Below are positions 1 through 41,119 of a stretch of DNA of 64,000 bases, in pieces. Within the stretch, counting starts at the first letter, position 1, and the number at the start of each line of letters is the position of its first letter. Position numbers and translations under genes: made by a program. Below the pieces are notes generated by a model. The model did not search any database. It saw nothing but the letters and a program-made list of their open reading frames with translations, and was not told where the DNA came from. The stretch spans positions 23,994,001 to 24,058,000 of the forward strand of contig CM060733.1 of assembly GCA_030704615.1 (NCBI GenBank). The letters run 5' to 3'. This DNA comes from Takakia lepidozioides (Eukaryota > Plantae > Bryophyta).

Positions 1-1875
1 GACCAGAAGTGCCAGAAGAGAAATTGTGGACTCCCGCTCTTGGTCCTGTTTCAGAAGCTGTGCTCATGGCCGAGGTGCCTGATTTTATCAACTGTGCCGC
101 CACTGCTGCTGCTTCCAGTTGACCATCTACCCATGCAGGTTTCTTGTAGCAATTGATCCACAGGGAATCATAGGTACTTTTGTGCTTGAAATCCGGCCCT
201 CTTGCATGAATCTGGACCCACACTCTATCCCTGATACTTCGGCTATCCCTGGCTCTGCACAAATCATCTATAGATCCTCGCCTTGCTGATTGCAGCTGAC
301 AAAGACAGCCTAAATTTGTTCTACCACACACCCTGACCCTACTTATCATACACGAGTTTCCGATGCTGAAGTGCTCCCAAGACATTAAGAAGGTGCTAGG
401 AAGAGAGAGGAGGACAGTTTCCAACAAAGCTTTGTATTGCATCTTGTTGTGTGCTTCTCTCTGGAATCTAACAGGCATTCACCTTTTTGCCTTGGTTGTC
501 CCACCATTAACTGGGGTCTGAATCCAATGCTTCTCCTCGTCTCTGTTATCTGTTTCTTGATACTTTCCGGCTGCCACATTGGCAGTAACATGTCAAAGTC
601 ACTCCAAACCACCGTAGATCAACCCAATCATTTGCAGAATTCGACATGAAAATTAGGGACAATTCTGATAAGAGGGTAAAACAGGCTGAAATGTGCTGAA
701 GAAGTGCCCTCACCACATTGTCCTTGACCTTGTGTCTTGAAAGCAGCTAGTTTTTCTTCCGCCCATGAAGGATTCAACCGACCATCAACCCAAAAGGACC
801 TCTCTTGTGTGCTGCTTGTGCCTGTAGTCAGGTGAACTCGGATTGGTCTGTGAGAACCACCACTGTGCAGCTGAGCAGCCATAGATTTAACCTCCGCCTC
901 CTAAGACCAAGCTGACCTTCCCAAGTACCTCATAAACACCACGAAAAATACCAAATCATGCTACGAACAGGAAGAGCCCACATTTGCAGGAATTCTTCAG
1001 ATCATACATGAAGAAAGCCACACCTTGCCATTGCGGCTGTCACACCATTGTGAAGGACATATAAAAAACTCATGCCAGCTCTGCTCCATGCTCCACAGTA
1101 GACCTTCATGCCGGAGAATTCGATAGCATCAACATTTTTGGCAATTGTTTTCTACAGACGAGCTTTCAACAACATTCATGCAAGTCACTTTGGGCTCCAT
1201 TGGACTCTACACAATTGGACACAGAAGAATATGTCGAAACTTACACAGATGCTAAACCACCTTAGTCTGGAGTTTTTGGTGAAAACGACCAGGGAGCAGC
1301 CATAGTCTCAACCCTCCCAAGTACCTCGCAAACTCCAGGGAAAAGACCTTGCGCATCCTACCTTTCATGCCCTGCCCAGGAAGAACAACCGCCGCTATGG
1401 ACAGTAATACCCAGTTTTTGCAGAGCAAAGCGAGATTCTGACTTCACTCAACAACTAGGAGTGCAATCCAATCCACACAACATGATCATACCAGAGTTTA
1501 GTCGAACTCTGTCAGACTCTTCACATCCTACATGAAGAAAGCTCACCTTGCCATTGCTACTGTCCCACCATTGTGAAGAATCTTTAAAGAACTCTTGCCA
1601 GCACTGTTCCATCCTCCAGCGTTGACCTACGCGCCAGATATACCAATTATCGGCCTTGAGATCCCGTGCGCTTTCTTGCTTCTTTGCCCAGAGTACATTC
1701 ATTTCTGCGGAATTGCGCAAAACACAATTCCGAACCTGGATCCCACGGCGCATACATACAACACAGCGACCCCAAAAATGGAAACCGCCAAGTGTTTCGT
1801 GTTCTCACCTAATTTGAATGGCACCCTTGAAGGCGCCATTGCCACCATATGCAAATCACTCCGTCCACTTCGCAT
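1..1875 (-). pseudogene. 5' part of a PDF-motif/PPR paralog (runs off the left edge of the window)
   Basis: 1-225 is the reverse complement of a close homolog of 32497-32710. PDF half-motif exons WQEFFKDSSQWWDSSNGK (~1546-1640), PDYRHK..WVDGRLNPSWAEEKL (~740-840) and S*WWDNQGKK (~480-520). Contains frameshifts and an in-frame TAA. Confidence 0.75.
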
Positions 1876-2639
1876 TGCCCAGAGAGGGATGCCGGCCCGT
1901 CTCCAGAACGCGGGAAGATGCTGAATGCAAATTAGGCCACGCTTTGACGGCCCATGAGCATATTCCAACTCTGGGTCTTTTATACTTACAGAGATGCTTT
2001 TTCTTTTCGGTAGGGCCCCATCTACCCAGCATGGACTCGGATCCGAAGATGTTTGTGAGCTCATGCGAGCCAACGTAACTATGATGCTCCTCTGATACTG
2101 TCGTTGAAGAGGGCCATGGCTTGTGGTTGACAGCCTATGCATTGGCCCTTGTGGGTCTGGAGCTCCATCCTTTGGGCTGTGGGCTCTGTCCACTCTGTAC
2201 TCTGTGGGCACTTTGCCTCTCTATCTCTATGTGAGGGGTGAATGGCATGAGGTATCAAGATCAATAACTGTCCTTTGCAGATTGTCGTTCCTGACACGGA
2301 GGAGGACTCAGGAGCAGAGCGGTGCTGAGCACGTGCTTGAGTGGGGCCCGGAGTCCAACATATACGTGTGTTTGGAGCATATCCAAGGGTGGTAGAGACT
2401 AGAAACAGTAGAAGTGAGGAAAGTAGCTGGATGCCTTCGAATCCTCCGGAGTTATGGTAAAAATTGAGTAGTAAGGAGTAGCGTCTTCGAGAAGCTTTTC
2501 ATGGAAAGTGATGGCCGACAGCGGGCAGAGGCCGATGGTCGACAGCGGGTGGCTAGAGGCGATAAGTAGACACCCCAACCGAGGGTCTAAAAGGGGCACA
2601 ACAGCTGTGCAGGCTAGTGCCGGGCCCGCCCACTCCTCA

Positions 2640-3250
2640 CACACCAGCCTTCAGCGTGATAATGGTGGGCCTTTCTCTGCCACACAAAATAACCCTAGAC
2701 GCCAGGGTGGTCAGCCCCCTTACACTAGGCACATTATGAACAATTGCAATTTCAGGTGCAATCCACCATCTATATGCGAGAGTCTTTATCATCTTCTCTC
2801 TGCTCTCGAAAATATACAACGTGGTTTTTGGGTCATCCGTCGTGGAGGCCATCCCCCAATCGCATACCCCGATGTACACATCTTCAGACCCTTGTGGAAA
2901 ATGCAACAAGATGTTGTGGAGGGACATGTCGTTGTGCAAGAGGTGGTGATTATGGACGTTGAGCATGATGTGCAAAAGCGCCCATGCCAATTGGGTGCGA
3001 TTCTGTCAGAATCGAACCAGTCGGTTGACCTCTTGCATTTCCTGCTCCGTCCTTTGTCATTCCATTAACTCCCTGTTATCCCGATCATTCCCCCATTTCT
3101 TATCAGTACTCAACCATGATCGTATGGTCCCCCCATTCCACCAATGTGTGTAACCTTCATTTCGACGTGGATGCAACGCAAAATATTTTATGATGCCGAA
3201 ATGATGGAACTTTACAGCCAACGCGAAGTCCACGTAATGAGGCCACATCG
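2640..3250 (-). pseudogene. Degenerate Ser/Thr protein kinase domain
   Basis: LLHNDMSLHNILL (catalytic loop), VCDWGMA (DFG equivalent) and WIAPE (APE); interrupted by stop codons. Confidence 0.7.
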
Positions 3251-3962
3251 GTTGTCACGTCGGTTCTCATAGTAAATAGTCAATAGTAAAGTAAAAAAAT
3301 AAACATATTTATGTACAGTAACGTCCGTTTAGGACGTGACGTGACGCACGTCCGTCGCTGACGTCGGACGTGATGCTGACGCGTCAACTCCACGTCACGT
3401 CCAAATTTGCAACTAGGGTCATAAGAACGCTTCCCTCCAAGGCTACGTCCTCCCACAATCCTAAAGGTAAGAATACCCCCCCCTTTAAGGGAATTTGCAG
3501 ACGCATTGTCCGCTGGGTAAACGCCCCCGCCACGTGGCGGGGCGCAGATCCACGCGTAGCGGTCTAAGCCGTGGACCACTGCGGTTAACGCCGGCGTCCG
3601 CTGGTCCGTCTCAGCTTTTAGTTATCCTGCGGGTAAATACCCGCCTTCTGCTCACACGCTTCAGGGGCTCACGCCTGAGCCACGCGGTTGATGTATTTGA
3701 TCTCAGTACGACTTAAGGTCAGCGATGGGCCCCGCTCCTCGTACGTTGTGGCTGGGCCACGGCTGCCTCCACGCTTTTAGTAATCGAGTGCCTACTCTCT
3801 AGGCGCAGCACCCGGGCTCTTCCCGGGCTACTCGCGACCTTGGGGCAGCTGCTGTCAAGCGAAATTAGCCCGCCCAAACCCCAAGACAAAAAAAAAAATA
3901 CAACCCCCCCTCCCCTAGGCCTCCATGGCTTGCTAGTGGGGGGGGGATTAACACATACTGGC

Positions 3963-4047
3963 TGTCGTGCGCATACATATCGCTACACAACTACATCGCT
4001 GTCCAAACCACACCACACATATATGCACAATAAAGTAGTCTAGCACA
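3963..4047 (-). repeat. Terminal repeat Y2 (85 bp, TG...CA), identical to 4398-4482
   Basis: Direct repeat; the match extends over 3961-4048 = 4396-4483. Confidence 0.9.
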
Positions 4048-4048
4048 A

Positions 4049-4395
4049 TGATAAGCAAGCTAAAGTCACACACGATGCAAAGCATGAAAACCAAACCATC
4101 ACTCTTAGAAATAGAAGTCGAGCCAGGGGCACCCCAAGCTATGGGGACTCCACCCCACAACAACCTACACTCCCATCATAAGCACACTCAGATCTAAACG
4201 CATGAAGGAGCTCGGTCGCGCAGGCTCAACTCGAGAGAGATGAGCTGCGCGACTGCCGCTCTCGTGAAGATAAGACAGACCAGGTGTCAAACTAAACTTG
4301 ACACCTGATTTAACACTTGACCTAAATCCAAGTGTTAAATACAAATAACTAGTTTTATTCTAGCTGTTTTCACACTGTGCTTATTTAACTTGACA
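4049..4395 (-). repeat. LTR-like repeat X2 (347 bp, TG...CA)
   Basis: Identical by eye to 15617-15963. Confidence 0.95.
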
Positions 4396-4397
4396 GC

Positions 4398-4482
4398 TGT
4401 CGTGCGCATACATATCGCTACACAACTACATCGCTGTCCAAACCACACCACACATATATGCACAATAAAGTAGTCTAGCACA
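4398..4482 (-). repeat. Terminal repeat Y1 (85 bp), directly after the polypurine tract
   Basis: Copy of 3963-4047; joined to X2 through the palindrome GACAGCTGTC (4392-4401). Confidence 0.9.
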
Positions 4483-4483
4483 A

Positions 4484-4494
4484 TCGCCCCCCTA
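4484..4494 (-). promoter_or_regulatory. Polypurine tract (PPT)
   Basis: Minus strand reads AGGGGGGCGA-T then the TG start of Y1, about 250 bp downstream of the pol stop. Confidence 0.7.
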
Positions 4495-4741
4495 GCTGGT
4501 GGATAGGTCCCTCTACCTCCAGATAGCTACAAGATGTAATAGCCACAGCCGTACTAAGTCCTCTATCACTGTCTTTATCATGCTCAAACTCTATCACCAA
4601 GAGGCCGGGTACAAGAGTAGCCCCATCGTTAGTCGCCGTCTTGCAATCTATGAACTTGAGCCAAGATCTCGTGTGTTCAAGGTCTCCTAGTAGCTGGGCC
4701 TTGCGTTTCTTGTTAGCCTCCCATGGTTGTATCCACTCCCA

Positions 4742-7717
4742 CTATCCAATGCAATGTGGACATAACCAATCCCCATCCGGAACCATCTCAAGAGGTGGAG
4801 TCAAGCATCCCATATGCCAACCTCTAGAGCACCGATCACACACCAGCATGGTGGCTGCCCCTTTAGCAGACCCACACAACATGCACCTCAAACCTGCAGA
4901 TACCACTGCCAGGTTTGGGTCAATCCTGCCATCGACATTCGGAAGGTGACATGGCGCACAATTACGCACATGGTCCTTCCAAGTGATGCCATCCCGACCC
5001 TCCAAGACCAAGACGCCTGAGGGCAAGACCTCTCGAACCCTCAAAATAACACGTCCTGCAGTCACATCCAGGGTCGTAGGAGCAGTCTGCTGCAGATAGA
5101 CATAGTCACCAGGGTTGAATCTCCGAACCCCAGGACGATAGCCCCCACCACGTATGGTAGCATACCTCAACGTATCACGGTGTTGTGCAATGGCAAGGTT
5201 CTCGAAAGCCATGGGCATGACTCTCTTGAACAACTCTGCACGCTGCTCACATGCACGTGCCCACACGTCCGGATCGTCAAGGTTAAGAACTGTAGCAGCT
5301 TCTCTGCGAATGGATGTAGGCAAATCCGGCTCTCGGCCAAAGAGAAGAAAGTATGGTGAGAAGGAGGCAAGTGATGCTTGCTTGCTGAACCTGTAGCCCA
5401 TGGCTAACCAGGGTAACTGAAGGTCCCAATCTCCTAGGTGTCCCTTCTGCAAGCCATACTTGCGCAAACCCCTCTTTACTGTCTGAACAACTCTCTCTGC
5501 CAAGCCATCGGCTTCAGGATGATCCCGAGAAGTGGTGCGGTGGTCTATCAAGGCCTTGTCACACAAAGCCTGAAACTCCCCCAAGAACTCTCTCCCTTGG
5601 TCCGTGAGTACCTCAGCTGGAGCACCGAATCGGCTAAGCACACAATCCAGGAATGCATACGCAGCTCCCTCACTAGCCTTATCAGGCAATGGAACCAATT
5701 CAATCCACTTGGAGAAGTGCTCCACCATCACCAACACGTACTTGTTGTGGCGCATGGTCAGTGGCAACGGCCCTGCGAAGTCAAGACTCCACCTGTAGCC
5801 CAATCCCATGATCGGAAGAGGGTGCAATTGTGGAGTAGGGGCGTTGAATGAAGCACGCACCCTGTCACACACCATGCACCTAGCCACAAATTGTTGCACC
5901 TCTGTGTGCATACCACGCCACCAATACTGCCCCTGCAGTAGACTATGAGTGCGTCGCACCCCAAAATGCCCCAACTCCTCATGGGCATGCCGCACTAACC
6001 GTGCCCGCTGTGTTGGGTGAGGCACAATCCTCACTCGACCATCCTCCCACACTCGGAGCAGGTGTGTCCCCTCCCACCTGAACCTCTTGGCTCGTTGTAG
6101 GATCCGATCCCTCTCCTTGGCAGTCATAGTGGCTGCCGTGTCTCCACTGCGGAGGTAGTCCAACACAACTGAATCCTCATGTATATCTTTGGCGCCACCC
6201 TGCTCATTGCTGGCCTCAGGGTCCTCAGACACTTGATCTACAGTCATCCCTGTTGTAGGTCCAACCTGGCCTTCCGCTGCCAAGATACACAGAAATGCAG
6301 ATGCATGCCATCCGGGCACCATCTCCTCGTCCGTCTCACCATGCCACCGAGCTCCAGTGTCATCCTGCTGGCTCGTGCATGGATTGCGACTCAACCCATC
6401 TGCATTTCGATTGACCAAACCCGGTCGATGCACCACCTGAAAGTCATACTCTTGAAGGATGAGTGCCCACCGTGCAAGCTTCCCCGTAAGCTTGTCTGAC
6501 TCCATCAACCACTTGAGTGGTTGGTGATCCGTGACAAGGGTGAAGAGATTGCCGTATAGATAGCACCTGAAGTGTGCCACGGCCCACACTGCAGCTAAGC
6601 ATTCTCCCTCATATGAGCTATACTTAGACTCTGCAGCATTGTTCGAGCGGCTAGCATAAGCCACTACGAACTCTCTTCCCTCATCATCCACCTGTGTGAG
6701 CACCGCTCCAAGCCCCAGCATGCTCCAATCTGTATGCAGCTGAAAAGGACGCCCCCTGATAGGTCGTCTCAAGATGGGCGCCGAGGTCAACCTCGCCTTG
6801 AGCTCTTGAAAAGCTTGTTCTTGCTCATCTTCCCACTGCCACTCCTGGTCCACCTTGGTCAGCTTGGTTAGAGCCTTTGCAATGGCACTAAATCCCTTAA
6901 CAAACCGTCTGTAATAGTTTGCTAACCCCATGAAAGCTCGAACTCGGCTCACATCCGTGGGGCGTGGAACCTGTGCAATGGACTCTACCTTAGTCTGCTG
7001 TACCCCCAATCCTCCAGGATATATCATGTGACCCAGATACTCAATCTGGTTGTGGAAAAACTTGCACTTGCCCGGATGTAACTTCAATCCGTGCGTCCTC
7101 AAGCGCTCAAATACCCCCTGAAGGTGTCTCTCATGCTCCTCCACCGTAGCACTAAAGATGATGATGTCATCTATGTAGCACCGAGCAAACTCCACCCCTG
7201 CTAGAATCCTGTCCATGACTCTTTGAAACTCAGCGGGAGCGTTTTTAAGCCCAAATGGTAAGAACCGCCACTGGTATAGGCAATCCTTCCCGTGCTCATT
7301 GATCCCCCAGAATGCCGTCTTTTGCTTATCCGCCTCCTTGATCGGCAACTGGTGATATCCGGATCGTAAATCCAACGTGCTAAAGACCTTGGAATGCCCA
7401 ATGGCATCAAAGATCTCCTCTGGTGTTGGCATGGCATACCTATCGGACTTGGTCTGACGATTTACAGGCCGGTAATCACCGCACATACGTCTCTCCGTCC
7501 AATTGCCATAGACATCCTTCTTAGCTGGCATCACTGTGGCTGAAGCATACTCTCCACCAGAGAGCTCCACCAAACCTGCCTCCCAGAGATCTCGAGTCCT
7601 CATCTGAATCAAAGACCTCTCCATGTCACTGTATCTATAGGGTCTCCGAAAGATTGGCGTGTCAGTGGCCAACTCAATACGGATCTCTTGACCCTTCAGT
7701 GCTCCCAAGTCCTTCAA
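4742..7717 (-). CDS. pol: Pol: reverse transcriptase, RNase H, integrase and C-terminal PHD finger
   Basis: RT: CGDYRPVN, LDLRSGYHQ, LPFGLKNAP, YIDD. RH: TDWS..LGAVL, YSSYEGECLA, TDHQPL. IN: HEELGH..CMVC, SLDFAGP, TDQGREF, GLAER. PHD: CMLC...CDRC..GWHMGC...WLCPHC. 991 aa open; probably joined to the upstream ORFs across a frame break. Confidence 0.95.
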   Translation of the reverse strand: MKDLGALKGQEIRIELATDTPIFRRPYRYSDMERSLIQMRTRDLWEAGLVELSGGEYASATVMPAKKDVYGNWTERRMCGDYRPVNRQTKSDRYAMPTPEEIFDAIGHSKVFSTLDLRSGYHQLPIKEADKQKTAFWGINEHGKDCLYQWRFLPFGLKNAPAEFQRVMDRILAGVEFARCYIDDIIIFSATVEEHERHLQGVFERLRTHGLKLHPGKCKFFHNQIEYLGHMIYPGGLGVQQTKVESIAQVPRPTDVSRVRAFMGLANYYRRFVKGFSAIAKALTKLTKVDQEWQWEDEQEQAFQELKARLTSAPILRRPIRGRPFQLHTDWSMLGLGAVLTQVDDEGREFVVAYASRSNNAAESKYSSYEGECLAAVWAVAHFRCYLYGNLFTLVTDHQPLKWLMESDKLTGKLARWALILQEYDFQVVHRPGLVNRNADGLSRNPCTSQQDDTGARWHGETDEEMVPGWHASAFLCILAAEGQVGPTTGMTVDQVSEDPEASNEQGGAKDIHEDSVVLDYLRSGDTAATMTAKERDRILQRAKRFRWEGTHLLRVWEDGRVRIVPHPTQRARLVRHAHEELGHFGVRRTHSLLQGQYWWRGMHTEVQQFVARCMVCDRVRASFNAPTPQLHPLPIMGLGYRWSLDFAGPLPLTMRHNKYVLVMVEHFSKWIELVPLPDKASEGAAYAFLDCVLSRFGAPAEVLTDQGREFLGEFQALCDKALIDHRTTSRDHPEADGLAERVVQTVKRGLRKYGLQKGHLGDWDLQLPWLAMGYRFSKQASLASFSPYFLLFGREPDLPTSIRREAATVLNLDDPDVWARACEQRAELFKRVMPMAFENLAIAQHRDTLRYATIRGGGYRPGVRRFNPGDYVYLQQTAPTTLDVTAGRVILRVREVLPSGVLVLEGRDGITWKDHVRNCAPCHLPNVDGRIDPNLAVVSAGLRCMLCGSAKGAATMLVCDRCSRGWHMGCLTPPLEMVPDGDWLCPHCIG

Positions 7718-8139
7718 ACTGAAGGCAAAGCAATTCCTGTAAGCCCTCAGGAACCGCCGTATACGTCGTCTCTCTCCTCCGGTGACAATGGGTCCAATAT
7801 CAGGCTCCCAATTGTCCTCCGTAACTGCAACCTTAAGTCCAGTGGGCTTAGAGGTAGAGGACGCGTCCCGTGGTTGCTATGCTGCAACCTCTTGAGCAGT
7901 ACCCCCTTCCTGCTCAGTCAATGACAAGGCCTCATCCTGCCCCATCATCTCATCATTGAGAACCTCCTCATCCATCACAGCTGCCTTCGCTGCCAACTCC
8001 CCTGAACCTCGAGCACCTCCCACATGTGCCATGGATGTCTACACCTCGTGGTCCTCACCGGCTCGCCCCCACTCGCTGCCTGTACCGTCTCGGTAGGCAG
8101 AGAGACCATCAAGGGAAGTGCACTCCGCACTCTACGTTG

Positions 8140-9100
8140 CTCAGCCATAGCCAAGCTGACAATCCAGGTCAAGCAATTGAGATCCATTGCTTGCCCCAAC
8201 ACCTGACGACGTGATGCCTCAGAAAGGGAAGGCACCGCCGTGGTCCCAGTGGAAAACCCCATAGCCCGCTCTCGCTCGTCGGCATTAGGCTCCACTAACT
8301 GCTGCAACTGAGCATCCCACAGGAGGCCAGGTCCACCATCCCGAAAAGCATGGGATCCTGGGAAGCTGAGCAGTGTAGGTAATGCTGCTCGTGGTTGACC
8401 CACCCTGTTGACCACTGCCAAAGGCGAACGGTCATCGTGTCTCACACGTTGAGACTGCCTTCCTGTGTCCAAAATGCCATCCACGGTGAGGTGTGCTGGC
8501 CGCTGCACCCCATCAAATGCACGCTTGAGCAGTGCGGGTGGCATCAAGTTAGTCCACCATAGTCGTGGACGATGAGCCCGTGACCCCACTGCAGCTGCAT
8601 CCAGCAATACTGCTGACCCAAGCCACGACCGGACTTGATGCACACTGGCCATCACCCTGGCCCGAGAATCACCCATCAGTGGCACATTCTCCAAGATGTA
8701 TGCCGGAGATACAGCTGATGAAGCTGCAAGTGGCGCAAAATCCGCACCATCTCCCAAAACAGACCCGTCCTCGAGTCTCGCAATCCATTGCCATGCCCGG
8801 CTGATGAATGCCCTTGGCAGGGCCAACCTGCCACTACCAGATCAATGGAGCCAACCCGCTCCAAATCCTGCGCCCCCAGCAACGCAATGTCTGCTGGCAA
8901 GGCCTGCTGATATCCACGAACTGCAGACACCGGCAACAACTCAGGGTGCTGCTGCACCATCTGAGCAACATGGCGCAGTGAGACGCGTCGTGCAGTCTCA
9001 TCCCTCTCCACATACAGGTAACGTCGAACTCGTACACCTGCCTGCAGCACTGCAGCCAATCCAGTGCTGATCCCGCCAAATAAGTCCAGAAGGCATATGC
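8140..9100 (-). CDS. C5 cytosine DNA methyltransferase domain (DNMT3/DRM-like) inside the polyprotein; one frame break near 8720
   Basis: Motif I LLDLFGGISTG, II YVERD, IV DLVVAGWPCQ, VI YILENV, VIII AHRPRLWWTNL, IX ERERAMGF, X RRQVLGQAMDL (ORFs 8676..9500 and 7975..8826). Confidence 0.93.
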
Positions 9101-9499
9101 CTTCATCCGGTCGCTGCCACACAAGAGGTGTGGTGTCCAATGGCGACAACTGAGGTGGCCCTGGTACAATCACCGCACTCTCCTCCTCTCCTGACGGTAC
9201 AAAAGCTTCTACCCAAGCTTGTTGCACCCGTCCATCAGCAGCGTGCTGCAAATCCTTGCTCGTACCCCACAACGGAGTGTGAGCAACCATGGCAGGCAAC
9301 TCCGCCGTACCATGCATGTCATCCTGCTCTGCTGGAGGTGGCACATCCTCTGCATGGGCATTGCCTTCCAGCAACTCTCCAGGCCAACTAATGCAGCTGT
9401 GAAGGCGGCTAGTGTTGGCATCTTGCCCCGCTGAGCAGCTGCAATACCCCCAATGAATGTCACAGGGAGCTGTGCACGGCGACCATCCCCTGACTGCCA

Positions 9500-9840
9500 T
9501 CCAGGCCTGTAGGATGCTGACTCCTCCCAGAAATCCAGGGTGAAGCCCATGGGGTATAACACTGCCCCACCAACGAGGACATCGTAAGAGACCGCGTCTG
9601 TCACAATGGCCTTGGCTCGCATCACTGAGCCATCTACAGGATGATCCGGCTGCAGTCTAATAGCCAACTGATGCCGTGTCATGCCGCGAGCCTGCTCTGA
9701 TCCTCCCAGAGATGTCTGTATCTGGAAAGGACAAGGCTCCATATCCGCCTCCATGAGGCCCAAACAGCTCTGCCCAACATCAGTGGCTGAGCTCCTGAGT
9801 CCAACAAGACCCGCAGTGGCCGGTACTTCTTGCCTGCCGG
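9500..9840 (-). CDS. Retroviral-type aspartic protease (frame break near 9765)
   Basis: RVLLDSGAQ active site and downstream YDVLVGG..LYPMGFTLDF. Confidence 0.85.
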
Positions 9841-10183
9841 TCCACTCAAAGTGAAAATGCCTCCCTGGTTGTCTAACAAGACAACTCCAGGTGTCACCAT
9901 GGCGCGCTCAATGGCTGGCCTAGCTGGCAGCTCCGTCAACCTGGCAGCTGCAACTTGCCATGGCGCAGCCGTGGCAGTCTTGACCCTCAAATCCGAGGAT
10001 CCCTCTGCCACTACACCTTCCACTAACTCCGCAGAAGATGAAGTGACCTCCCCACTCTCACAGAGTGTTGCTGCTAGTCTGAACACTGCAGCTGGTCTCA
10101 CCCCCGGCGTCGCAATCATTGTTGCCGAGAACAGTGGGGCCTGACACACAGAGGTGGCTGCCCCCAATAACACACCGGCCGCA

Positions 10184-11856
10184 CTAGCCTTGGCAGCAGG
10201 TCAATGCTGCACGTGTAGCTCTCCCCAATGGCATAGTAACCTCCGCCTCGGTAACAGTCGGGCGAGAACTAGGTGCCATGGATGGCGTCGACACAGTCTC
10301 CGCCAATGTGAATGACTGAGGAAGCCTTGCCTGACGGCTTGCCTCCCCACGCTGTGGATCCAATTCCACCTCTGCACCTCGTGGCTCAGGAACTCGTGCT
10401 GCTCCTCGAGTCACGGCTGCAGCAGACTCCACCTGCTCTAGTGGTAGTGCTGCTCCGCACATAAATCCCATGCCTCCCATATCTCCTCCCTCAGGAGCAG
10501 GAGGTGGGCCATCCCGCCTGGGAGCCGGTACCGCCTGAGCTATAGCCATGGCAGCGAGCCTCTGCTCTAGCTGCTGAAGCCGATTGGCCATGCCTTGGTC
10601 AACACCCTGACCTCCGCGTCCTTGGCCATGTGGAGCTTGCCCTTGGCCTGCACCTCGTGCCCGACCACCTCGTCCTCTTTGGGCTGGTCCACCTCGCCCC
10701 CGGCCACCATTGTTCCCTTGGAACTGGCCTGGGCGCAACTCAGGATGCAAGTCATAACACTGGGCATCTCCATGCCCATACTTGCCACAATGCCCACACT
10801 GCAACTGTGCAGGCTGTGCTTGTGCCGGCCTTCTGCCACTCTCTGGGCAATCTCTCTTGACATGGGGTCCTCCACATGTCCAACATATCACCCCTGGTTG
10901 CTGTTGGCCTGCAAAAGATGCCACGGGCCTCTGCACCTGAGGTCCCCTGTAAGCTCCATGGAACTTGGGCTGGGCAACCTTGCCCCCCTGACCACGCTGT
11001 TGGGCAGTCCCTTGTGCTTGTGGGCTGACAGCTGTGCCCCGTACAGGCATGTCCTTACCAAATCCAATTGTAACAACTCGCTCCTCCACCATGTTGAGCT
11101 CAATCCGCTCAGCCAGCAGAAACACATCTGCTAATGTGGGTTGGGCTGCTTGTAACAGGGTTGCATCTCGCACCCTTCTCTTGAGCTCCTTGTCCAGAAT
11201 TCCATACCAAAACTGGATTGCCTGAGCTTCAGTAACCCCTTGGGTCACACTTATCAAGCGCCTCATACGAGTGTACGCCTCTCGCAGGCTCTCACTGGGT
11301 TTGCGCTGGAAGTCTTGCAAACTTCGCAGCTTCTCTGTCCGTACACCTTGGTAGTTCTCCGCAACTCCTGGAAGAACTCCACCACCGGGTTGAATCTAGG
11401 CAAATGTGTTGTAGTCGTGGCAGGAGAAGTAGTAGCACCTTTTGAACTGGTACCACCTTCAGAAGTACCAGCACTACTTGCTCCACTACTAGTGCTGGCA
11501 GTGGAAGCTATTGGTACTGATGCAGCTACTGGTCGCGTCGTGCCTCGAGTAATGGAGACGTAGTCAGGTGACCAATACATCCTCCACTCCTCAATCTCTG
11601 CTTCATGTCCTCGCCTGAACTCGTGGTAATCGTCCATAGGCGGGCCTTCCAAATGCTGGAACAGTCCCTTCCACGCCATGAATGGGGTGAATAGCTGTGG
11701 ATTGCGCATCTGCTGCAAATCACACCAGCTGTCGAACTCCTGGATAAAGTCATCCAACTCGATTGTGCCCACAGCTCCAGAGTACCTACGAGGCCCCTTG
11801 GTAGCTCCATACATCTCCTCCATGTCGTCCCACAACAATGGCGAATGAAAGTGCAC
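10184..11856 (-). CDS. gag: Gag with two zinc knuckles (frame break near 11355)
   Basis: PRRYSG..LDDFIQEFDSWC; FQRKPSESLREAYTRM capsid-like segment; CWTCGGPHVKRDC and CGHCGKYGHGDAQC knuckles. Confidence 0.85.
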
Positions 11857-12557
11857 ACCTGTTGATGAAGCCTCCGAGTCTGTGTCTGACGCTACAGTAG
11901 TTGAGGGTGGCGGTGAAGGTGGTCTGAACCGAATACCTCGTCTTGTGACCCCACTCTCACTGTCACTGCTGTAGCCGTACTCCCCTCAAAACCCTTGGGT
12001 AACTCCGTAATGACACTCACAATGTGCACCTCCTCCACGTGACACTATAAGGCTCTAGTACTAATCTAATAGTGACACGGGTGGGCACCTGTTGCAGTCT
12101 AAGGGTCATATCCCAATGGCTCAGGGCACCTGCACCTGCATCCACCGCAAGAACTCCTATGGTTGGCTGGTCATCAACCCAGCCTCACCATAGAAGAAAC
12201 ACTGGTGGTCTTGCTGGTCATCACTCCAGCCTCACCACCGACAGCATACTCTAGGATTGACCGGTGATCAAATCCGGCCTAATCCCTATGAAAGCAAGCG
12301 CCCACACAAAACCAACATGGCGCACAGTCAAGCATGCAGGTGTTGGGGGGGATCCAAACACAAGAAATCAAAACATCAACACCCCCACACCAAAATCCAG
12401 CAGCAACGCTGATCCTGCAGAATATCCCAGCCCAAAACCCCGGACTGACTGGCCTCCACCAAGAGAGGCTTTGGCAACTACAAGTACAAGGTAATGAAAA
12501 TAGTACAGAGATGGAGGGGAAGAATAGAAGCCCGCCCAAGCAAGATCTAATCCTGAT

Positions 12558-13307
12558 CTATGCTATCAACTTCCAGACTTCTCTCAAAGTGCCTCGCTCT
12601 GCTTGATGGTAAGGTGTAGGAGGTATATCTATGTCCAGAAACCTGCCACTAACCTTGTCCCAAGCTACAGTAGCTCGCTCTAACCAACCCTCCTCCTCTT
12701 TCTGCCAGGTAGAGACAAAGCAACACTCTGCTATCTCCCGCTCACTGAACACTAAAGAAAACAAAGGTAGGGTCTGATAGTCTCTCAACTCGAAAGCTTT
12801 GAGACGATTGCGGGTGTCTTCATTGCGAATGACTGCATCGCCTTCAAACAGAACAAACTTGTCCTCGCTAATGAACCCCCGCTCGTGGTTGCCTTGTGCA
12901 GAGCGTGTCCGACTGCAACACTGTCTAATTGCACAAACTTGTGCAGCTCCTGCTCCTCTGCTCCAGTACACCACGGCCTTGTGGCTGAACACCTTGGTCC
13001 CCGGGGCTGTCTTTGGCTGTGTTCCAAGCCTAGCTTTCACCCACTTTGGTATTTCACCTACAGCTGCAGAACTGCTGGCTCCAACAGAGTTCTGACTGTC
13101 CAAGGCGATATTGAGGCCCTCAATGCCAACTACAGCAGTCTGTTGTCTACTGCTAATGCCTGACTCCCAGTATGCAATCAACTCGTCCAACTGTTCTCCA
13201 CTCAAATCAGTCTGAGTTCCTTGGGAAACATAAATCGTGTCCCCTTGTGTGCACAGACTAAGAGAAGAGACCTGCCCTTCAATTACGTCCTCATTTCCCC
13301 CAGCCAT
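12558..13307 (-). CDS. Extra 249-aa ORF of unknown function upstream of gag, inside the retroelement
   Basis: ATG-initiated, uninterrupted, same sense as gag-pol; no recognisable motif. Confidence 0.4.
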   Translation of the reverse strand: MAGGNEDVIEGQVSSLSLCTQGDTIYVSQGTQTDLSGEQLDELIAYWESGISSRQQTAVVGIEGLNIALDSQNSVGASSSAAVGEIPKWVKARLGTQPKTAPGTKVFSHKAVVYWSRGAGAAQVCAIRQCCSRTRSAQGNHERGFISEDKFVLFEGDAVIRNEDTRNRLKAFELRDYQTLPLFSLVFSEREIAECCFVSTWQKEEEGWLERATVAWDKVSGRFLDIDIPPTPYHQAERGTLREVWKLIA

Positions 13308-14219
13308 GCAGGGAGTACATCCACCAATTTGTCTCTCATATAGACCAGCACAGGTTCTAGAGACAGGATTGTGGATCTTTCATGGCACTCTCACACTCTA
13401 AAAATTCCATAGATTTTTAGCAGAGTCCCCAAAGCAGAAACCAGGTTTAGATAGGTAGATTTCCCCTTTCTGCAGCTATCCCCCCAAAAACTGGGTCAAC
13501 CAGAGTCCATTTGACAAAGATATGATGAATTTGGCTCCAAATCATTCAAATTAGATTAAAAAGGGTTTTTTTTTTTTTAAAGTTTTCAAGTTTAACAATT
13601 TAAAGTTACACCCAAAATGTCTGGTAACTGGTTCCCGGTTCCCTAAGTTCTATATGGCATCCTAGGTTCCCTGGCCACGTGCCTGCTGTTCCCCTCCATT
13701 TCATTTGAGTTCAACAGCTCACCATGCTTTGGAATCCCAACCGTCTTCTACCACAAACCATGGTGACGATGGAGGTCGTGGAGCTCATTTCCCCTTAGCA
13801 ACACTTCACCTTGGCACCCTCACAAGTTTCATTGAAGTAAAGTTGGCAAGCAAGTTCCTGCAAAGCCTGCCCCACACACCAGCTTAGCAGTGTCCAAATT
13901 GAGTGATCCCCAGCTGGGACCTTTCTTCAAGCCTGTCGGCTATGTGGAAACCCAGCTGCAGTGCACGGAAGTACGTGTGCCTCGACCACTCGGCAATGTG
14001 CCTGGCTTTGTGGCAGATCTGTCCTCTGATCCTTGCTTACTAGCAGGGGCTCTCAAAACCCCAAAGAACTGTTGTCCACTGGCTTCAAGTCCGAGAGCTA
14101 GCTGATCAATCTGTGTGGCAGTGAGTAGGGCTACGGTTCCAAAGACAATATAGAGAACCGATCACGGAGGATGGCTGTTTAACCATTCTAAGCACCTTGC
14201 CAGCTGCAAGGGAAAAACC

Positions 14220-14650
14220 CCAACTTTCCTCCTTCCCTACCCTGCTTAGAAAGAGCAACCTAAGCTGCTGACAGTAAGAGCCTCTTTCCGAGGAGAAACC
14301 AAGACTCTTACGTCATTCAACCACTAGGGGTACAATCCAGTTCACCATAACAGAGTCAGTGAATATCCTCCCTGACAGACTCCTTCACGTTATACATAAA
14401 GCATATTGCCAAAGCTGCAGTCGCACCATTGTGAAGGATCTTTAAAGAACTCCAGTCAGCGCTGTTCCATGCTCCAGTGCTGACCTACATGCCAGATATT
14501 CAAAAGGGCCCCTTCTTCGACCAGATTACTAGGTGCTGGTCAAGCCAAAAGACCATTCACGGTGCATAGAATACCCGCACACAGAAACAGCGAAGTGTTA
14601 TGACCTAGTCTTGTTGGGATCCCTGAAGGCTTCGTAGGAGGCGTAGCTAC
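14220..14650 (-). pseudogene. Diverged copy of PDF-PPR exon 1 and intron inside the retroelement
   Basis: 14421-14500 aligns with 1561-1640 and translates IWHVGQHWSMEQR*LEFFKDPSQWCDCS; the flanks resemble 1350-1540 and 1780-1835. Confidence 0.7.
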
Positions 14651-15602
14651 CACTTGAAAGGGACTCTGCACTTGGGCCTTGACAAGTAGGATCCCGCTTT
14701 CAACTCCATAACCCAGTCCTTAATCTGGTCAGCAAGCAAGCAGTTAGCAAGCAAGCATCACGCATCAGTGAAAACCATAATCTGCTGCTCCATTTGAGTA
14801 CATCTCTCAACCCCTCTCTACAGTCCCCCAACATTACCAATCACATTCTGCTCGTCCGCTGCCTCCCCAGCACCACAAGATGTGGAAGGCTTGTTCTGCA
14901 CCCTCGGTTCTTGATCCAAACAAAAACAACTGATGAACAAAGTGTTTCCATAAAAACAACGGAACAACAGATGGGAGAGATGGTGCATCCCTGCGCCCCG
15001 CCATCCAGCGCGCTCTGCTTCTCGTTCGACCTTCACTACTCACACCATACACGAGTGCGCAACGCCGAGACCCGTCGACAGCACGTCCGGAAACTCCGCA
15101 CAGGGGCAAACAGCAACACAGATGCAGGCAGACAGTTCAGTGGTCACTGCAAAACCCCATCACCAAGGACTTGGGCCAACTTGACCAATTTCTACACTCA
15201 TGCCAACCTGGTTCTTGACAAGCTACCACTCCCGCCAAGTAAAAACCATCAGCGCTACAGGTCACGGTGAATCCAGCAATATGCCTGCAAGCCAGAATGG
15301 GCTACAAGCCAATGGCCCTTCTTGAGCTGCAACACAACGGACCACACAAGTTGGGCACGACTGGCCTACTGGGTGCTCAGCCTGCCCCAGCGCTCAGGCA
15401 GCAGGCTACTAGGGCCCCCGCGCGCACCCGCCACCACAAAACAGGGATAACTACACCCTGATCACCACCAACGCCCATGTGTAAACAACAAGCGCAAACC
15501 CATGGCAACAGCAGGACTAGATGGGCTCCTGCCCCAAGTTATATATTATAATAGTGTTAAAAGAACATTGTATCTAGCTTAGCACTAGAAAACTAGATAG
15601 GG

Positions 15603-15616
15603 TCATCTCTCTCGAG
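15603..15616 (-). promoter_or_regulatory. Primer-binding site complementary to the element's own LTR (self-priming type)
   Basis: TCATCTCTCTCGAG at 15603-15616 is the exact reverse complement of CTCGAGAGAGATGA at 15798-15811; no TGG tRNA-type start. Confidence 0.8.
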
Positions 15617-15963
15617 TGATAAGCAAGCTAAAGTCACACACGATGCAAAGCATGAAAACCAAACCATCACTCTTAGAAATAGAAGTCGAGCCAGGGGCAC
15701 CCCAAGCTATGGGGACTCCACCCCACAACAACCTACACTCCCATCATAAGCACACTCAGATCTAAACGCATGAAGGAGCTCGGTCGCGCAGGCTCAACTC
15801 GAGAGAGATGAGCTGCGCGACTGCCGCTCTCGTGAAGATAAGACAGACCAGGTGTCAAACTAAACTTGACACCTGATTTAACACTTGACCTAAATCCAAG
15901 TGTTAAATACAAATAACTAGTTTTATTCTAGCTGTTTTCACACTGTGCTTATTTAACTTGACA
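15617..15963 (-). repeat. 5' LTR-like repeat X1 (347 bp)
   Basis: Identical to 4049-4395; TG...CA ends; followed by the PBS on the coding strand. Confidence 0.95.
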
Positions 15964-18900
15964 TGGCCTTATAGTGGCCTTATATCATAGATCCAGCCGA
16001 CTGGCCTGCCGTTGTTAGAGCTGGCTATATTTCAAATTAGTAACCAAACACAAAGATTCATTCTTCAAACAATTCAAATACAAGCCTCTATTGGTACCAT
16101 TTCCAATAGGCTATGGGGTTTTTCCCCTTGTCAATTCTAGACATGAAATAGTGGGATTCCACAATGCACTCACCTCTTTTGAAGAGCCTAAATCAGATTT
16201 TCAACTTTAAGCTTTGCTTGGAAAATAAATGAATCACATACATAAATGGTGAAATGGTAAGATGGGATCAACTTTTCTATGCGAGAGTGATTGGGATGTT
16301 CATCGACTCAAGTAATGGTACTCTATACGGCCTCCACTTGGGCTCTCGTCCATAAGTCCACACCAGCCCCTCTTACTCGTCCTCAAGTCACTTTCCTCTA
16401 CATGAAATTGCCCTCTTCCTTCACAAATGAAATGGCTCAAAGGCCCACAAGCTAGGCCACTTGCCTTAGCTTACAAGAATTCTACCTAACTAGGAAGCTT
16501 CAAGCTCCACTCCCTAGGATCTAGCCTCCTCAAGCCTCAAACTAACAAACACTACAACAACAAGAGAAAACTAAACAAGAGAATAACTAGATGAAGAACA
16601 AGAGAAGCCTTGCCCTTCTTTTATACTGTTTTTGAGCCTAATAAACTAATGGAAAATATTCATTAAACTATTCTTTTCTTGGAGGATCTATAATATAATA
16701 TTCAACATGGATGAAAAGTCTTAGAGGCAAATGAAAGCTGGCTTTTCATCCATCCAATTGGATGACCAGTTGGCGCGAGTTGTCATTTCATCCATCCAGC
16801 TCCTCAAGACGAATTTCAAGATTTTTCATCCATCCAAGAAGTAGAAATGCAAATAATAGGCCCTGTAAGTGCCGTCAACTCAATAATTTGGCCCTGCTAC
16901 TAATCAGCTCCATAAATCACCAAACTTGGTGAAAAACTACAATTATATACCTTGTATCAGCCTGTAAATTCTCAGCTCCATCGGTTGTAAAAAGTTGTGT
17001 TTCTCGCCATTCGTCGTATTTTCGCTACACACAGATTTTGTGGTATTTTTGGAAATCAAATCCCTGGTGATGGTTCTGGGGTCTTTGACCCTGCCACTGA
17101 GTCATAGGTTGTCCGGAGTCCCCTCCAGTTGTCCCGCACCGCTAACAAGTCCACGCTTCGCCGTTTGAAGTCGTCATGACTTGTTGTCATTCCAATGCGG
17201 CCAATTATTTTGTTGCGATATTTCATCGCTGTACATGTCGCTTCCACCAATTGCCAAGCTCCTCGCCATGTGTTCCTACTGGACTTGAAAGGCAGGAGAA
17301 AAGAGGGATTGCAATCTGAGACTGGAACAATCGTCCTGTATTGTTTGAACATGATTAACTTGTCGTTTCTGGTACCGAATTGGCAGCCTAATCTGCAGTC
17401 GATGCAGCTGCCTATGGTCATTTTGACGCCAAAGTTCCACTCCATGGTCGTCGCAGACACTGTCTAATTTCCTACGTGTTTTACCAACGATTTCCAAACA
17501 ACTAACAAACTAACATGTTTTGGCAGTACAATGCCGAAACCGCTTGTCTTATGATCAAAAACGATCCGAAAAGAAAAGTGTACCAATATATGCATCTACA
17601 GTGGGCTGCAATTATAACCTAGCAGCTAGCGGAAAAATGGGATATTGTCCAGGTAAAGAGCTTTTTGGCTAGGCTAGGGTGTGTTGTCCCCTTCGGATAG
17701 CGAGAACGTAGGCGACCCTTTTGCACACACGTGCAATCTAGGGGCGTGTGTTGGTGAAGCAACCCAGACCTAAACGGCTTGCCCTTAACGCTTTTGGTAG
17801 CAGTCAATCCAGGTGAAGAAGATCTTCCGGGGACACCGACAAGCTCCGGGGAAGCTGTGTTAACCGTAATAAAGAAGACTTGGAAGACAATTAGCTAGGA
17901 GTAGATTCCTTAGGAGATAACAAACGAATTATGCCCCGCGAGCGTAGGAGTTGAAACCAGCGTTTGCTGGTAGTTTATGATAGCGAGAGGCAGTTCCCTC
18001 CATCGACCGCTGATCCTCCGCCAAGCTTAGCGACACATTTCACGGGTGGGCAGTTCTTGAGCCCAACCCACCTCATCGCCGGACTCCAGGCTCCGGATCG
18101 ACGTTAGCCTTCATTTTCCCCGCGGATGTTGCGCGCGCGGTGAGGCTCGTCAGGAGGCAACCAGAGAAGTCCTGCAATGAATGTAGCTAATCACGTGGGT
18201 ATCAGTGGTGTTTTTGAAACAGTAGTCTAGTGCGAGGTTCATCTCAAATGATTGTTCAAATGAATGGTCAAATGGTTGTTCACTGGACTTCTGCCAAAAA
18301 CACTTTCAACCCATCATCATTCTTAGTAGTGACAATTTAGGCTTGTGCATGGCCATACTTACATGAAAGCCACGCAAGATTTTAGATTACATCGCCAGTC
18401 TGTAATATAAAGACTTGTGTCGCCCTCTATAAGTATTTGGTTGCACTCCAAATGTCCCGTCATGAATGTTATGGATCACTTGGGTATCAGTAGAGTGTCG
18501 TGCCAGCCAAGTCCTACTCGAGGTTCATCTTGAAATACTTGAATGGTCAATGGACCGGAAGGGAGAAGGTTTCAATGATCCAAATTCTACGAACTGGATA
18601 CAGTGAAAGACACAGATGAACCTGGACAAAGAAGGAAGGGAGGTCTCCCGTAGAAGGAGGTCGAAAAATCGCTTGGAAAATATGGTGACTTCCTACGCAC
18701 ACATTCAACCCATCATCTGAAGCAATATAAGAGCTCTCACAATCTGGGAATTACTTCAAGTTGTCTGTCTGGCCATACTTACCAAGTTAACTACAAGATC
18801 TTATCCAACATGGCCAGTGTTGCATAAAGTCGTGTGGTTTACAAAGTAAGTCTGTTCAGACACTCTTGAAATCCCCGTAATGAATGTGTGGTTAATCACC

Positions 18901-21299: not shown

Positions 21300-21650
21300 G
21301 TTCAGGAGGAGGTTAAGTTGAGACCGGGTGCCAAACCCAAACAGATACAGCTCCAAGCCGCCCATAAGATGGCATTGGCCAGAATTATGTCGGAAGACGG
21401 CTCCGATAGAGTTCCTCTCGATGAGAAGGAAATGGAGGCATTGCTAGAGTCGGTGTCCCACGTATGTTCACCGAATGTCCGAAACCACATTGTCTCATGC
21501 AAACAGAAAATTGGGCGTGGCTCGGATATGCACTCCATTCTGGAGGTGAAGCGACGATGTGGATAAGACTACATTCATGGAAGTAGGTTTCCAGGACAAG
21601 GGACTGAGGCAGATCGTTGTTTCGTATTCAAAATGTCCACGTGTGGACCT
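21300..21650 (+). mobile_element. Fragment resembling bryophyte Mutator-like transposases, truncated by a LINE insertion
   Basis: SPNVRNHIVSC..SILEVKR..*DYIHGSRFPGQG...CFVFKMSTCGP; family recognised from memory only. Confidence 0.45.
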
Positions 21651-23331
21651 GACAAGACAGTTGTTGGGCCCCACAGCCATGGTATATTCACCAACCCCAT
21701 CATCATGCACATATCCTCAAGTCAACCTAGACAAAGCATGGAAATTGGCGACCCCAAGACCACTCTGGGCACTATTGCCACCAACACACATACTACCGAT
21801 CCCAAACTTTGCAACACCCTCTCCTCTGAAATTCCCACCTCAACAATGCATATATACAGATGGCTCTCTCAAAGAGGCGCAAGCAGGGTATGGAACTTAT
21901 TCTGTTACAGATAACTTGAGATCATACAAAAGACTACCAAGACGCCAAAATGTCCTACGCGCAGAACTCATGGCTATCCATGATGCCATAAAAAATCTAA
22001 GACACCAACCCATAGACTCAACCTTTTACCTATTTACGGACAGTTTAGTCTCTCTCTACCTCCTCACCAATCAAATCCTCAAACCTTCTACACAAATACA
22101 CCATCCAGACCTTAACCTTAAGCAATAATTGATGTTACTTCATCCCTCCCGCTACAAATCCATATACATAAAGTTCGCTCCTATACATGCATATTAGGAA
22201 ATGACATTGCAGACGAGATGGCTCAGCTCGGCTCCATGCAGCCTTCTGTAAATCCCTCAGATGACCCTATTCACTTAGCACACGCACATCCATTATGGCT
22301 CGTCTCAACTACGGCAAGATTCCCTACTATCGCACCTATACGAGATCTATACACACATGTCACAAAGGAAACCAAACAACAAATCCAAGCATCCCGCACT
22401 TATATAAAATCATACATATCAAAATGGATGTCTTCCCCACACCTAATGCATGCCATGTCCAACCACTTTTGGACCTCTCCTATAATTACTGATGCCCAAT
22501 TCAGATAAACACTACGATTTCGATACGGCCAATACATGGATAATCAAAAGAAAAAATCTATACTGGCCTTTATTATACCCTAACAAACATTGCACATTAA
22601 GCCACGCACAACCCCCCAAAGTAGACACATGGCCACACTTGCTTCTCCATTGTAAGCACCCCATACTCCATGGATTATATATAACCAGACACAACCAAGG
22701 AGTTTGGTAACTTCAAAAACTTCTTCTGTCACATCCTAAATCCATATGGTTTAACCTCATCAATGCATGTACGTTTCAAGGTAGACCACCGGACCACACA
22801 ATACCTCCATGGCTTCTACCATGTACATGTCTCTATATGCCATGTCATTTACTAGCAAGGTTATGCGCTGATATTCTACTTATCCATGGACTACCTCTTT
22901 CATCAACAATACCAACAGGTCCACACCCCTCCCTCACCATTCATATAATAGAATTTACATTTTGTCATGATAGGGACCCTAACCAAACAATTATGTTTAA
23001 ACGTGAAAAATATGAACCACTCATCTTAGCCCTTCGTCACCATGGAGGGAACACTGCCCCTTTGACTATCATTACCGTTGGTGTCATAGGGGGAGCACAT
23101 TGCCACAACACTCAGGTTTTCAAATAAAACCTCAAACTTTCGTTAAAATACACCACCCCACTCCTACGCACCCTACACTTCACAGCTATTACGTCACTTA
23201 CAGCCTTAATCCTCAACAAAAGGAAAGATTGAAAGTGGCCAGCTTACCGCTACGTAACTAGTTCTGGAGCCCACCCCCGCAATAATAATTATTATTTTTT
23301 GAGGCTCTTATTTGCGCTAGCTCCGGCTGGC

Positions 23332-27400: not shown

Positions 27401-27784
27401 GCTAAGTGGTTAACCAAAGAGAATCTCTCCTTAATATGGTCGATGACATCTTCACTTGACACTCAGCTTGCGTCTCTCACAGGGCCCCTCATTTCTGGAA
27501 TGCACTCACCCTACCATTTCCAAGTGCATTTGCAACCCAAGTGGAGTCAATGCAACTTCATGTGTGCTTACATATGTCCAATTAGTTGCGAGTGCCAGAA
27601 TTTTCCTATAGGGTCATGTGACATAAGGATGTGAAGATGCATAAGAACAATATACGTGGGGCTGAAATGAAGCATGATATGTCATGGCAACAGGAGGATT
27701 TCAACTGTTGGCACCAATGTCATTGTGGTCAAATAAGAAACGGGGGAATGTACACAGAATGCACCTTTCCACAATAACAACTGT

Positions 27785-41060: not shown

Positions 41061-41119
41061 ATAGGCATTGATAAGAAGTTAGCTTTACTTCCATGTCAGT
41101 TGCTAACAACAAGACAATG

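Follow-up and report, generated by a model that had tools for sequence, protein, structure and literature searches.

The closest described relative of the element analyzed here is KnitGypsy-Dnmt3 of Klebsormidium nitens, a Gypsy retrotransposon whose Pol includes a DNMT3 domain and whose repeats are DIRS-like (de Mendoza 2018, PMC5890265); the name Gypsy-DNMT3 is used in bioRxiv 10.64898/2026.05.21.726589. The K. nitens enzyme showed no activity in yeast, a result that its authors call inconclusive (PMC5890265), and transposon methylases have been said to be absent from land plants "such as tracheophytes" (PMC6338049). Other retroelements combine similar functions or carry one of them. The long terminal repeat (LTR) elements termed EpiLTRs possess a chromodomain, Dam and a DNMT4-related enzyme (bioRxiv 10.64898/2026.05.21.726589), chromoviruses of the Tf1/sushi-Tcn1 branch carry a histone-reader domain at the integrase C-terminus (PMC6317226), and the PHD finger is a common or widespread accessory domain of transposons that has been proposed to guide insertion (PMC6673714, PMC8557442, bioRxiv 10.1101/2021.11.30.470311). 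In this work, we analyzed a stretch of 64,000 nucleotides of the bryophyte Takakia lepidozioides (contig CM060733.1, positions 23,994,001 to 24,058,000; hereafter the window), which contains on its minus strand a 12.0-kb element (3963-15963) with the coding order gag, protease, DNMT3-like C5 methyltransferase (DNMT), reverse transcriptase (RT), RNase H, integrase and PHD finger (Table 1). We consider it probable, judging from its sequence and from that of its relatives, that the finger anchors the integration complex on nucleosomes by contacting histone H3 at its first residues, and that it does so apart from the element's own methyltransferase.

The finger is a genuine PHD, joined to the integrase in a retrotransposon of the Gypsy-DNMT3 kind. 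The open frame ends in CMLC-X11-CDRC-X4-H-X2-C-X12-W-L-CPHC-IG-stop, with the conserved Trp present, the first Cys at 4885, the last Cys ending at 4751 and the stop codon at 4742-4744; the PF00628 match covers model positions 1-47 of 47 and residues 998-1042 (E 2.5e-10, 40.7 bits for a cut-off of 24), and Pfam places RVT_1, RT_RNaseH, Integrase_H2C2 and rve upstream in the same frame. A search of the window in all six frames matched the pattern a single time, and 30 base shuffles gave no match. An AlphaFold2 model of integrase plus PHD, computed from a 73-row alignment, reached pLDDT 85-92 over the PHD blocks with an overall pTM of 0.51, and by structure matching it resembles the foamy virus and Ty3 integrases. 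An earlier interpretation made from the letters alone (the sequence-only reading) had proposed a complete C4-H-C3 PHD at the Pol C-terminus, in the place where chromovirus integrases have a chromodomain. Both points were borne out: Pfam match, pattern and model agree on the finger, and no chromodomain family was detected by Pfam at the integrase C-terminus in the scanned frames of the window (E <= 0.1) and of its relatives. With chromoviruses the element shares a histone-reader domain at the end of the integrase, as well as a predicted self-priming; it differs in having a PHD instead of a chromodomain, split repeats and a DNMT, and the two are likened by domain layout only. In the EpiLTRs a histone reader likewise accompanies DNA methyltransferases; the corresponding domains in the window are a PHD and a DNMT3-like enzyme. 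The retroelements CR1, REM1 and Chlamys and cnidarian fusions also bear a PHD as accessory domain. In REM1 it reportedly lies in a separate antisense frame, whereas here it is fused to the integrase.

The distribution of the finger was determined with a query restricted to RT-RNase H, which lacks the finger and is therefore unbiased for it. Among the best 120 of 2,732 matches, 57 proteins align past the integrase end and 45 of these 57 carry a PHD there, so that the domain is not absent from most family members, an outcome that the sequence-only reading had seen as fatal to it. A first homologue search, whose query included the PHD and in which the PHD was annotated in 117 of the 120 listed matches, was left out of this frequency. 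The 12 proteins lacking a C-terminal PHD are seven from Closterium, two sisters of these, P0110, whose finger is degenerate, P0199, whose PHD is placed before the integrase, and one outside the clade; the seven Closterium proteins stop after the integrase, with a DNMT-like region in three of them. The fingers range from Volvox and Haematococcus to Marchantia. We also compared metagenome loci (the best 80 of 149, retrieved with six seed patterns of which one lies inside the PHD). All eight zinc ligands are kept in 46 of the 50 loci aligned across the finger, and the median nonsynonymous and synonymous differences relative to the window are pN 0.21 and pS 0.59 for the finger, pN 0.39 and pS 0.61 for the linker between RNase H and integrase, and pN 0.11-0.17 for the enzymes. 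By this comparison, the finger is under purifying selection. Its loss in the Closterium clade and in two further proteins, where it must be dispensable, would fit a functionless passenger or a chance capture in the window copy; family-wide presence, ligand conservation and selection nevertheless largely refute this explanation, to which we attach hardly any credit.

On sequence features, the element belongs with the Gypsy-DNMT3 family described from Klebsormidium (PMC5890265). The two have in common the Ty3/Gypsy order protease-RT-RNase H-DDE integrase (supported in the window by Pfam, alignment and structure match), the DNMT3-like domain, the DIRS-like A-coding-B-A-B layout of the repeats and the RT clade. 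The type of the methyltransferase, an unrearranged C5 enzyme of the DNMT3 kind, was read from the unbroken domain of the relative L035, for which the PDB comparison placed DNMT3A/B/C in its first 29 rows, before HaeIII, HhaI and DRM2. The RT-RNase H tree was built with FastTree from an untrimmed alignment that comprised the window, 12 of the 80 loci and 137 of 206 proteins, namely all that had 300 or more aligned residues; it was rooted on an animal Gypsy element and contained no reference chromovirus sequences. The window falls in a clade (local support 0.956) with all four K. nitens proteins as well as Closterium and Haematococcus members, its RT grouping there with Calypogeia and Marchantia proteins; liverwort proteins were among the family members in both homologue searches. 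Among the Klebsormidium proteins of this clade, P0170 has a DNMT and P0175 a PHD, and from the DNMT of P0170 we infer that the K. nitens proteins of the tree would be the elements of the published study. Unlike KnitGypsy-Dnmt3, the window's clade is hosted by land plants, and its DNMT lies in the gag-protease frame, before a conserved in-frame stop that separates it from RT, and not inside the Pol open frame. The word "PHD" has no match in the text and the searched supplements of PMC5890265, a coverage that leaves out the figures, and Fig. 4c may show the finger. Two other affiliations were considered and rejected. Troyka is described with CG...CG ends, a 3-bp duplication and animal hosts (PMC12440569), to be compared with TG...CA ends and a 4-bp duplication in the window; DIRS and other tyrosine-recombinase retrotransposons do not fit a DDE integrase, and Pfam found no recombinase family in the scanned frames.

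Some relatives show other arrangements. In a well-supported subclade that comprises P0044, P0089, P0114 and others, together with Haematococcus and probably Volvox, the DNMT separates RNase H from integrase, and the PHD is followed by another 100-450 residues, some with a weak Tudor-like match; P0064 has a G-patch. In the sister lineage of P0199 and P0186 a Dam adenine methylase stands between protease and RT, and the PHD of P0199 lies between RNase H and integrase. The Marchantia gene models P0025 (Mp7g09570), P0125 (Mp2g26090) and P0126 are pieces of elements of this family, and P0126 passes from the DNMT end to RT, omitting the junction; liverwort counts of host DNMT3 or PHD genes may include element pieces.

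In the window's clade, a stop between DNMT and RT separates reader and writer. In L035 and L001 the DNMT and RT-integrase-PHD frames are otherwise unbroken and a single in-frame stop separates them, at sites (5083-5091 and 4661-4669, respectively) equivalent to that of the window. An RT start is present in 45 loci, three of which end too soon; in 38 of the remaining 42 an in-frame stop is found with the context [CT]AR-YY, and in 4 of the 42 it is not. The contexts are TAG-CAA-CCC (27 loci), TAA-CAA-CCC (4), TAG-TAA-CCC (2) and, in one locus each, TAG-CAA-TCA, TAG-CAG-TTA, TAG-CAA-CCA, TAG-CAA-CCT and TAA-CAA-CCA, while CARYY follows only 1 of 760 other in-frame pol stops. Among five lineages with differing flanks, 5 of 9 signal positions are identical compared with 6 of 61 flanking positions. 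Furthermore, 1,138 contig records (run X1) have no substitution at 1% or more at the nine junction bases and no sense-codon version, a contig of another study spans the same nine bases unchanged, and nine database proteins of the clade begin 2-29 residues past the stop. Copy-specific decay was rejected as the origin of the TAG, given its conservation across loci and contig records. A CAR-YYA sequence after UAG directs readthrough of about 10% in tobacco mosaic virus (TMV), and in-frame stops occur between gag and pol or between pol and env in Tca2, murine leukemia virus (MuLV) and SIRE1 (PMC2194720, PMC2754532). The window has the same in-frame UAG followed by CAR-YYA as TMV/SIRE1-type sites; its stop, in contrast, comes after protease and DNMT and directly before RT, which would place a methyltransferase on the abundant side. 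This resemblance suggests that the DNMT/RT stop is likely read through some of the time. Since the stop follows protease and DNMT, most ribosomes would end there and release DNMT together with Gag and in Gag-like amounts, the PHD-bearing integrase would be produced only by readthrough, and the protease would then separate the domains by cleavage.

The sequence-only reading had seen in this element a histone reader and a DNMT3-like writer in one polyprotein, in parallel with the ADD and methyltransferase of animal DNMT3. The ADD of DNMT3 proteins combines a GATA-like finger with an atypical PHD and immediately precedes the catalytic domain in the same chain. Here a single canonical PHD lies far downstream, across a stop that is conserved in the clade, and RT, RNase H and integrase intervene with about 1,080 residues. 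As to the single polyprotein, both domains do belong to one element, yet in the window copy the DNMT is outside the open frame of the PHD and is itself split over two frames by a break near 8,710. An ADD-like logic, in which the PHD would read unmethylated H3K4 and steer or activate the element's DNMT3 within a fused readthrough protein or a complex, can appeal to the co-occurrence of PHD and methyltransferase that was to be checked across relatives: both are present in 27 of the 32 loci with enough DNA on both sides, loci that are largely redundant (one of them, L044, was scored as lacking the finger by the script and yet shows it in its alignment). It can also appeal to the single proteins P0014, P0044, P0089, P0114 and P0149, which contain both domains, to the absence by Pfam of an ADD in the DNMT3-like enzyme itself and to the acidic patch retained in 19 of 20 algal-type fingers (see below). 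Besides the stop, the distance and the protease cuts expected within it, this logic is opposed by Closterium, which retains a DNMT without the PHD, by P0199, which pairs its PHD with Dam, and by the DNMT, which has two different places within Pol among family members, the PHD keeping its position behind the integrase. These observations make an ADD-like coupling unlikely, and we give it a small chance. We favor a division of labor in which the DNMT likely acts on the element's own complementary DNA (cDNA) or on the new copy, without control by the PHD.

What the finger would read was approached by comparison with solved structures. The best single-domain matches are the first PHD (PHD1) of KDM5B and KDM5A, ATXR5, MLL3, DPF3, BHC80 and BAZ2, and the solved structures that come closest read the H3 tail in its unmodified form. 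In KDM5A PHD1, L309, P331, G333 and W335 form the pocket for Ala1 of H3, D312 is the essential anchor of Arg2, and the changes D292A and E305A each cost about six-fold in binding (bioRxiv 10.1101/715474). Aligned to KDM5A, the window finger conserves the pocket as L1011, P1033, G1035 and W1037 and the anchor as D1014, through which it would bind Ala1 and Arg2, respectively; in place of the KDM5A acids D292, E305, D306 and D315 it has A, A, A and S. Across the family, 114 of 114 PHDs have a hydrophobic residue in the Ala1 pocket and 107 of 114 the Asp for Arg2. At the position that we take to be that of the cage Trp, 109 of 114 have Gly and none has Trp. The PHD class does include readers of K4me3, in which a cage Trp is invariant (PMC3241642). 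The aromatic cage of the H3K4me3-reading type (BPTF, ING, TAF3) was found in none of the 114 fingers, and a finger lacking it would not seek H3K4me3; targeting of active, H3K4me3-marked chromatin is thus very hard to sustain. In spacing, Ala1 pocket, Arg2 Asp and lack of a cage, the window finger corresponds to the readers of unmodified H3 (KDM5A/5B PHD1, BAZ2A, BHC80, AIRE), and the fingers of the family look, by these residues, like readers of the free H3 N-terminus.

The window's clade departs from these readers in the acids that contact K4 and R8, which are missing. The K4-contacting acids, located before Cys1 or before the first strand, are absent from the window finger; an acid precedes Cys1 in 2 of the 14 clade fingers, and the acidic patch is present in 0 of 14, compared with 19 of 20 in the algal-type group (methyltransferase inside Pol) and 42 of 80 other fingers. 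The median net charge is different, +2 in the clade and -3.5 in the algal-type group. With these acids lost, K4 states would be discriminated only weakly, and the proposal that the element is directed to H3K4-defined chromatin becomes doubtful for the window's clade, in which neither the cage Trp nor the acidic patch is found. The same replacement and reversal of charge would also suit a finger that no longer reads H3 in land plants and has another partner, be it a host factor, a nucleic acid (DNA or RNA) or the intasome. Retention of the Ala1 pocket and the Arg2 Asp in 12-14 of the 14 clade fingers, together with the H3 readers among the best solved matches, leads us to regard such a change as rather unlikely, if a more serious contender than ADD-like coupling. 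In sum, the land-plant finger is likely either to read Ala1-Arg2 with a weak sense of K4 or to have changed its target, and docking on the first residues of H3 is the reading that we retain.

The ends of the element indicate how its cDNA might reach the integrase. The repeats are laid out as A-coding-B-A-B, with TG...CA ends, a GCCA target duplication, a purine tract ahead of B and the primer site behind A. The 14 nt directly after A1 pair with the inside of A, a complementarity of which even 12 nt was reached in 0 of 2000 shuffles of A; L008 has a perfect 16-nt pair of different sequence, and primer sites picked by motif in the loci reach 11 of 12 matches in 6 of 13 cases. A primer site complementary to the own 5' repeat is of the Tf1/sushi type, self-priming being typical of Tf1/sushi and Tcn1 (PMC6317226), and by this pairing the element likely self-primes. 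Four-bp duplications also flank the three relatives in which both ends are present (L008, L015, L070), and the full repeat layout recurs in L046 and L070. A B-B-type repeat is found in 22 of 47 loci with 950 nt past the PHD, a set that includes old copies and cut contigs, and most of these 22 share the GACA-GC-TGTC junction. In the simplest model, a BA-coding-BA cDNA would circularize and the integrase would cut one B/A junction; foamy virus and HIV integrases reportedly cleave LTR-LTR junctions (PMC1180852, PMC1905944). As a tentative extension, which we offer as a possibility and well short of a preferred account, the element might possess a divided epigenetic toolkit: a leaky stop would yield DNMT3 in capsid-level amounts, which could let the particle methylate the element's cDNA ahead of integration, and the rarer PHD-tipped integrase would dock on H3 tails and cut the circular, self-primed cDNA at the internal CA-GC-TG. 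If so, the integrase cut of the circle would explain the A-coding-B-A-B layout, a DDE integrase would have a two-repeat circle as its normal substrate, and new copies would arrive already methylated.

Several observations weigh against the picture of an H3-docking integrase made apart from its methyltransferase. First, the 80 loci are for the most part closely related to one another, represent few lineages and are not independent. In addition, since the KDM5A-type acids are missing in the clade, H3 binding could be weak or lost. The stop itself is not universal, DNMT and RT being in one frame in P0014, inside the clade, and in P0149 and P0110, outside it, and some branches of the family thus do possess a protein in which reader and writer are fused. 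Its commonest context, CAA-CCC (31 of 38), differs by one base from the TMV consensus and has an ATG after it, which makes reinitiation or an internal promoter possible, and the invariance of the nine bases is weak evidence alone, since variation was seen at only 7 of 121 positions. A 3' stem past the stop is predicted in the window (z -3.27) and in L035 (z -3.78) and is not significant in L001, L043, L008 and L054 (z -1.83 to +0.10); at 2 of 6 it gives no more than a hint. Finally, the observed/expected CpG ratio is 0.42-0.60 in coding regions and spacer (stretches above 900 nt) and 0.58-0.66 in the flanks, with no clear sign of self-methylation.

The state of the window copy has to be considered apart from that of the family. 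DNMT and RT are separated in it by a frame break at about 7,965-8,001 as well as by the in-frame TAG (7877-7879), and about six frame breaks in all (7,965-11,356) interrupt gag, protease and DNMT, so that the copy as assembled cannot make these proteins. The matched pieces of gag, protease and DNMT are nevertheless without stops, the RT-integrase-PHD frame has no breaks, the repeats are 100% identical and contigs of other copies carry indel differences at the places of the breaks, which are thus copy-specific or assembly errors. The family is abundant and recently mobile in its host, as indicated by the identical repeats and by 76,820 contig records of one run over 7.6 kb. In L035, frame 1 matches Asp_protease_2 with E 2e-4, under the curated cut-off. 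The spacer from A1 to gag (12000-15616) measures 3.6 kb, compared with about 0.9-1.2 kb in L008, L046 and L070, and contains a 320-nt piece about 70% like window 1310-1641 and 31220-31503. A 273-aa frame in it (12558-13379) has no match in Pfam or in the loci of relatives; bacterial TraN, a low-recognition Atlas lead, was not accepted for it.

PHD fingers of transposons have been published, as have Gypsy elements with a DNMT3, and the finger alone is therefore ordinary; the interest lies more in the candidate readthrough site and the end structure than in the PHD. The literature searched, which mostly did not extend to subscription papers, Repbase, figures and preprint supplements, gave no account of the family's PHD, its readthrough stop or its land-plant members, nor of the self-priming site and the integrase-type ends inside the repeat. 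These features bear on the use that a retrotransposon makes of its own cytosine methyltransferase: from the conserved stop one would predict an enzyme at Gag level that is uncoupled from the chromatin reader, which would favor the element's own cDNA as substrate over reader-guided methylation of host chromatin. As relatives occur in Marchantia, short pieces in a model plant give access to readthrough, H3 binding and insertion bias.

Table 1. Features of the Takakia lepidozioides element (positions in the window).
Feature	Position	Strand	Basis or remark
Repeat A1, 347 nt, starts TG, element 5' end	15617..15963	-	100% identical to 4049-4395
Candidate primer-binding site, perfect 14-nt complement of 15798-15811 inside repeat A	15603..15616	-	candidate self-priming
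Gag with CCHC knuckle (10,757-10,798), broken near 11,356 and 10,199	10187..11985	-	Pfam Retrotrans_gag weak, E 0.07
Aspartic protease, LLDSGA starting 9807, frame break near 9,765	9455..9954	-	alignment to relatives
DNMT3-like C5 methyltransferase, frame break near 8,710	8131..9140	-	Pfam PF00145; 47-54% identity to unbroken L035 domain
DNMT motifs LFGGI, GWPCQG, ENVP, GQAM	9083-9069, 8828-8811, 8691-8680, 8196-8185	-	
Candidate programmed readthrough site, in-frame TAG then CAA CCA (CAR-YYA)	7871..7879	-	between DNMT and RT frames
Open frame RT - RNase H - integrase (H2C2, DDE core, SH3-like C-terminal domain) - PHD, 1044 aa	4742..7876	-	Pfam, structure model
PHD finger (C4-H-C3), integrase C-terminus	4751..4885	-	PF00628; best single-domain PDB matches KDM5B/KDM5A PHD1, ATXR5
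Repeat B1, ~87 nt, ends CA	4398..4484	-	100% identical to B2; directly after short purine tract 4487-4493
Internal B1/A2 junction GACA-GC-TGTC, two integrase-type ends (CA, TG) head to head	4392..4401	-	sequence
Repeat A2	4049..4395	-	100% identical to A1
Repeat B2, ends CA, element 3' end	3963..4048	-	100% identical to B1
Target-site duplication GCCA	3959..3962, other copy 15964-15967	-	sequence

Outside the element, the window contains a cluster of PPR repeats at 27685-41400 and 52400-53600, with a 913-aa PPR-E-DYW frame (32482-35220) whose N-terminal part matches a transposase-associated domain and which marks the host as a land plant with RNA editing, and fragments of other elements, namely a protein kinase (2637-3005, minus strand), an RNase H (21550-22125, plus strand) and an RT (25398-26024, minus strand). 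As a separate observation on H3 itself, 38 contigs of a viral collection (L081-L118) encode H3-like proteins with canonical first ten residues and tails that vary past residue 18-28.

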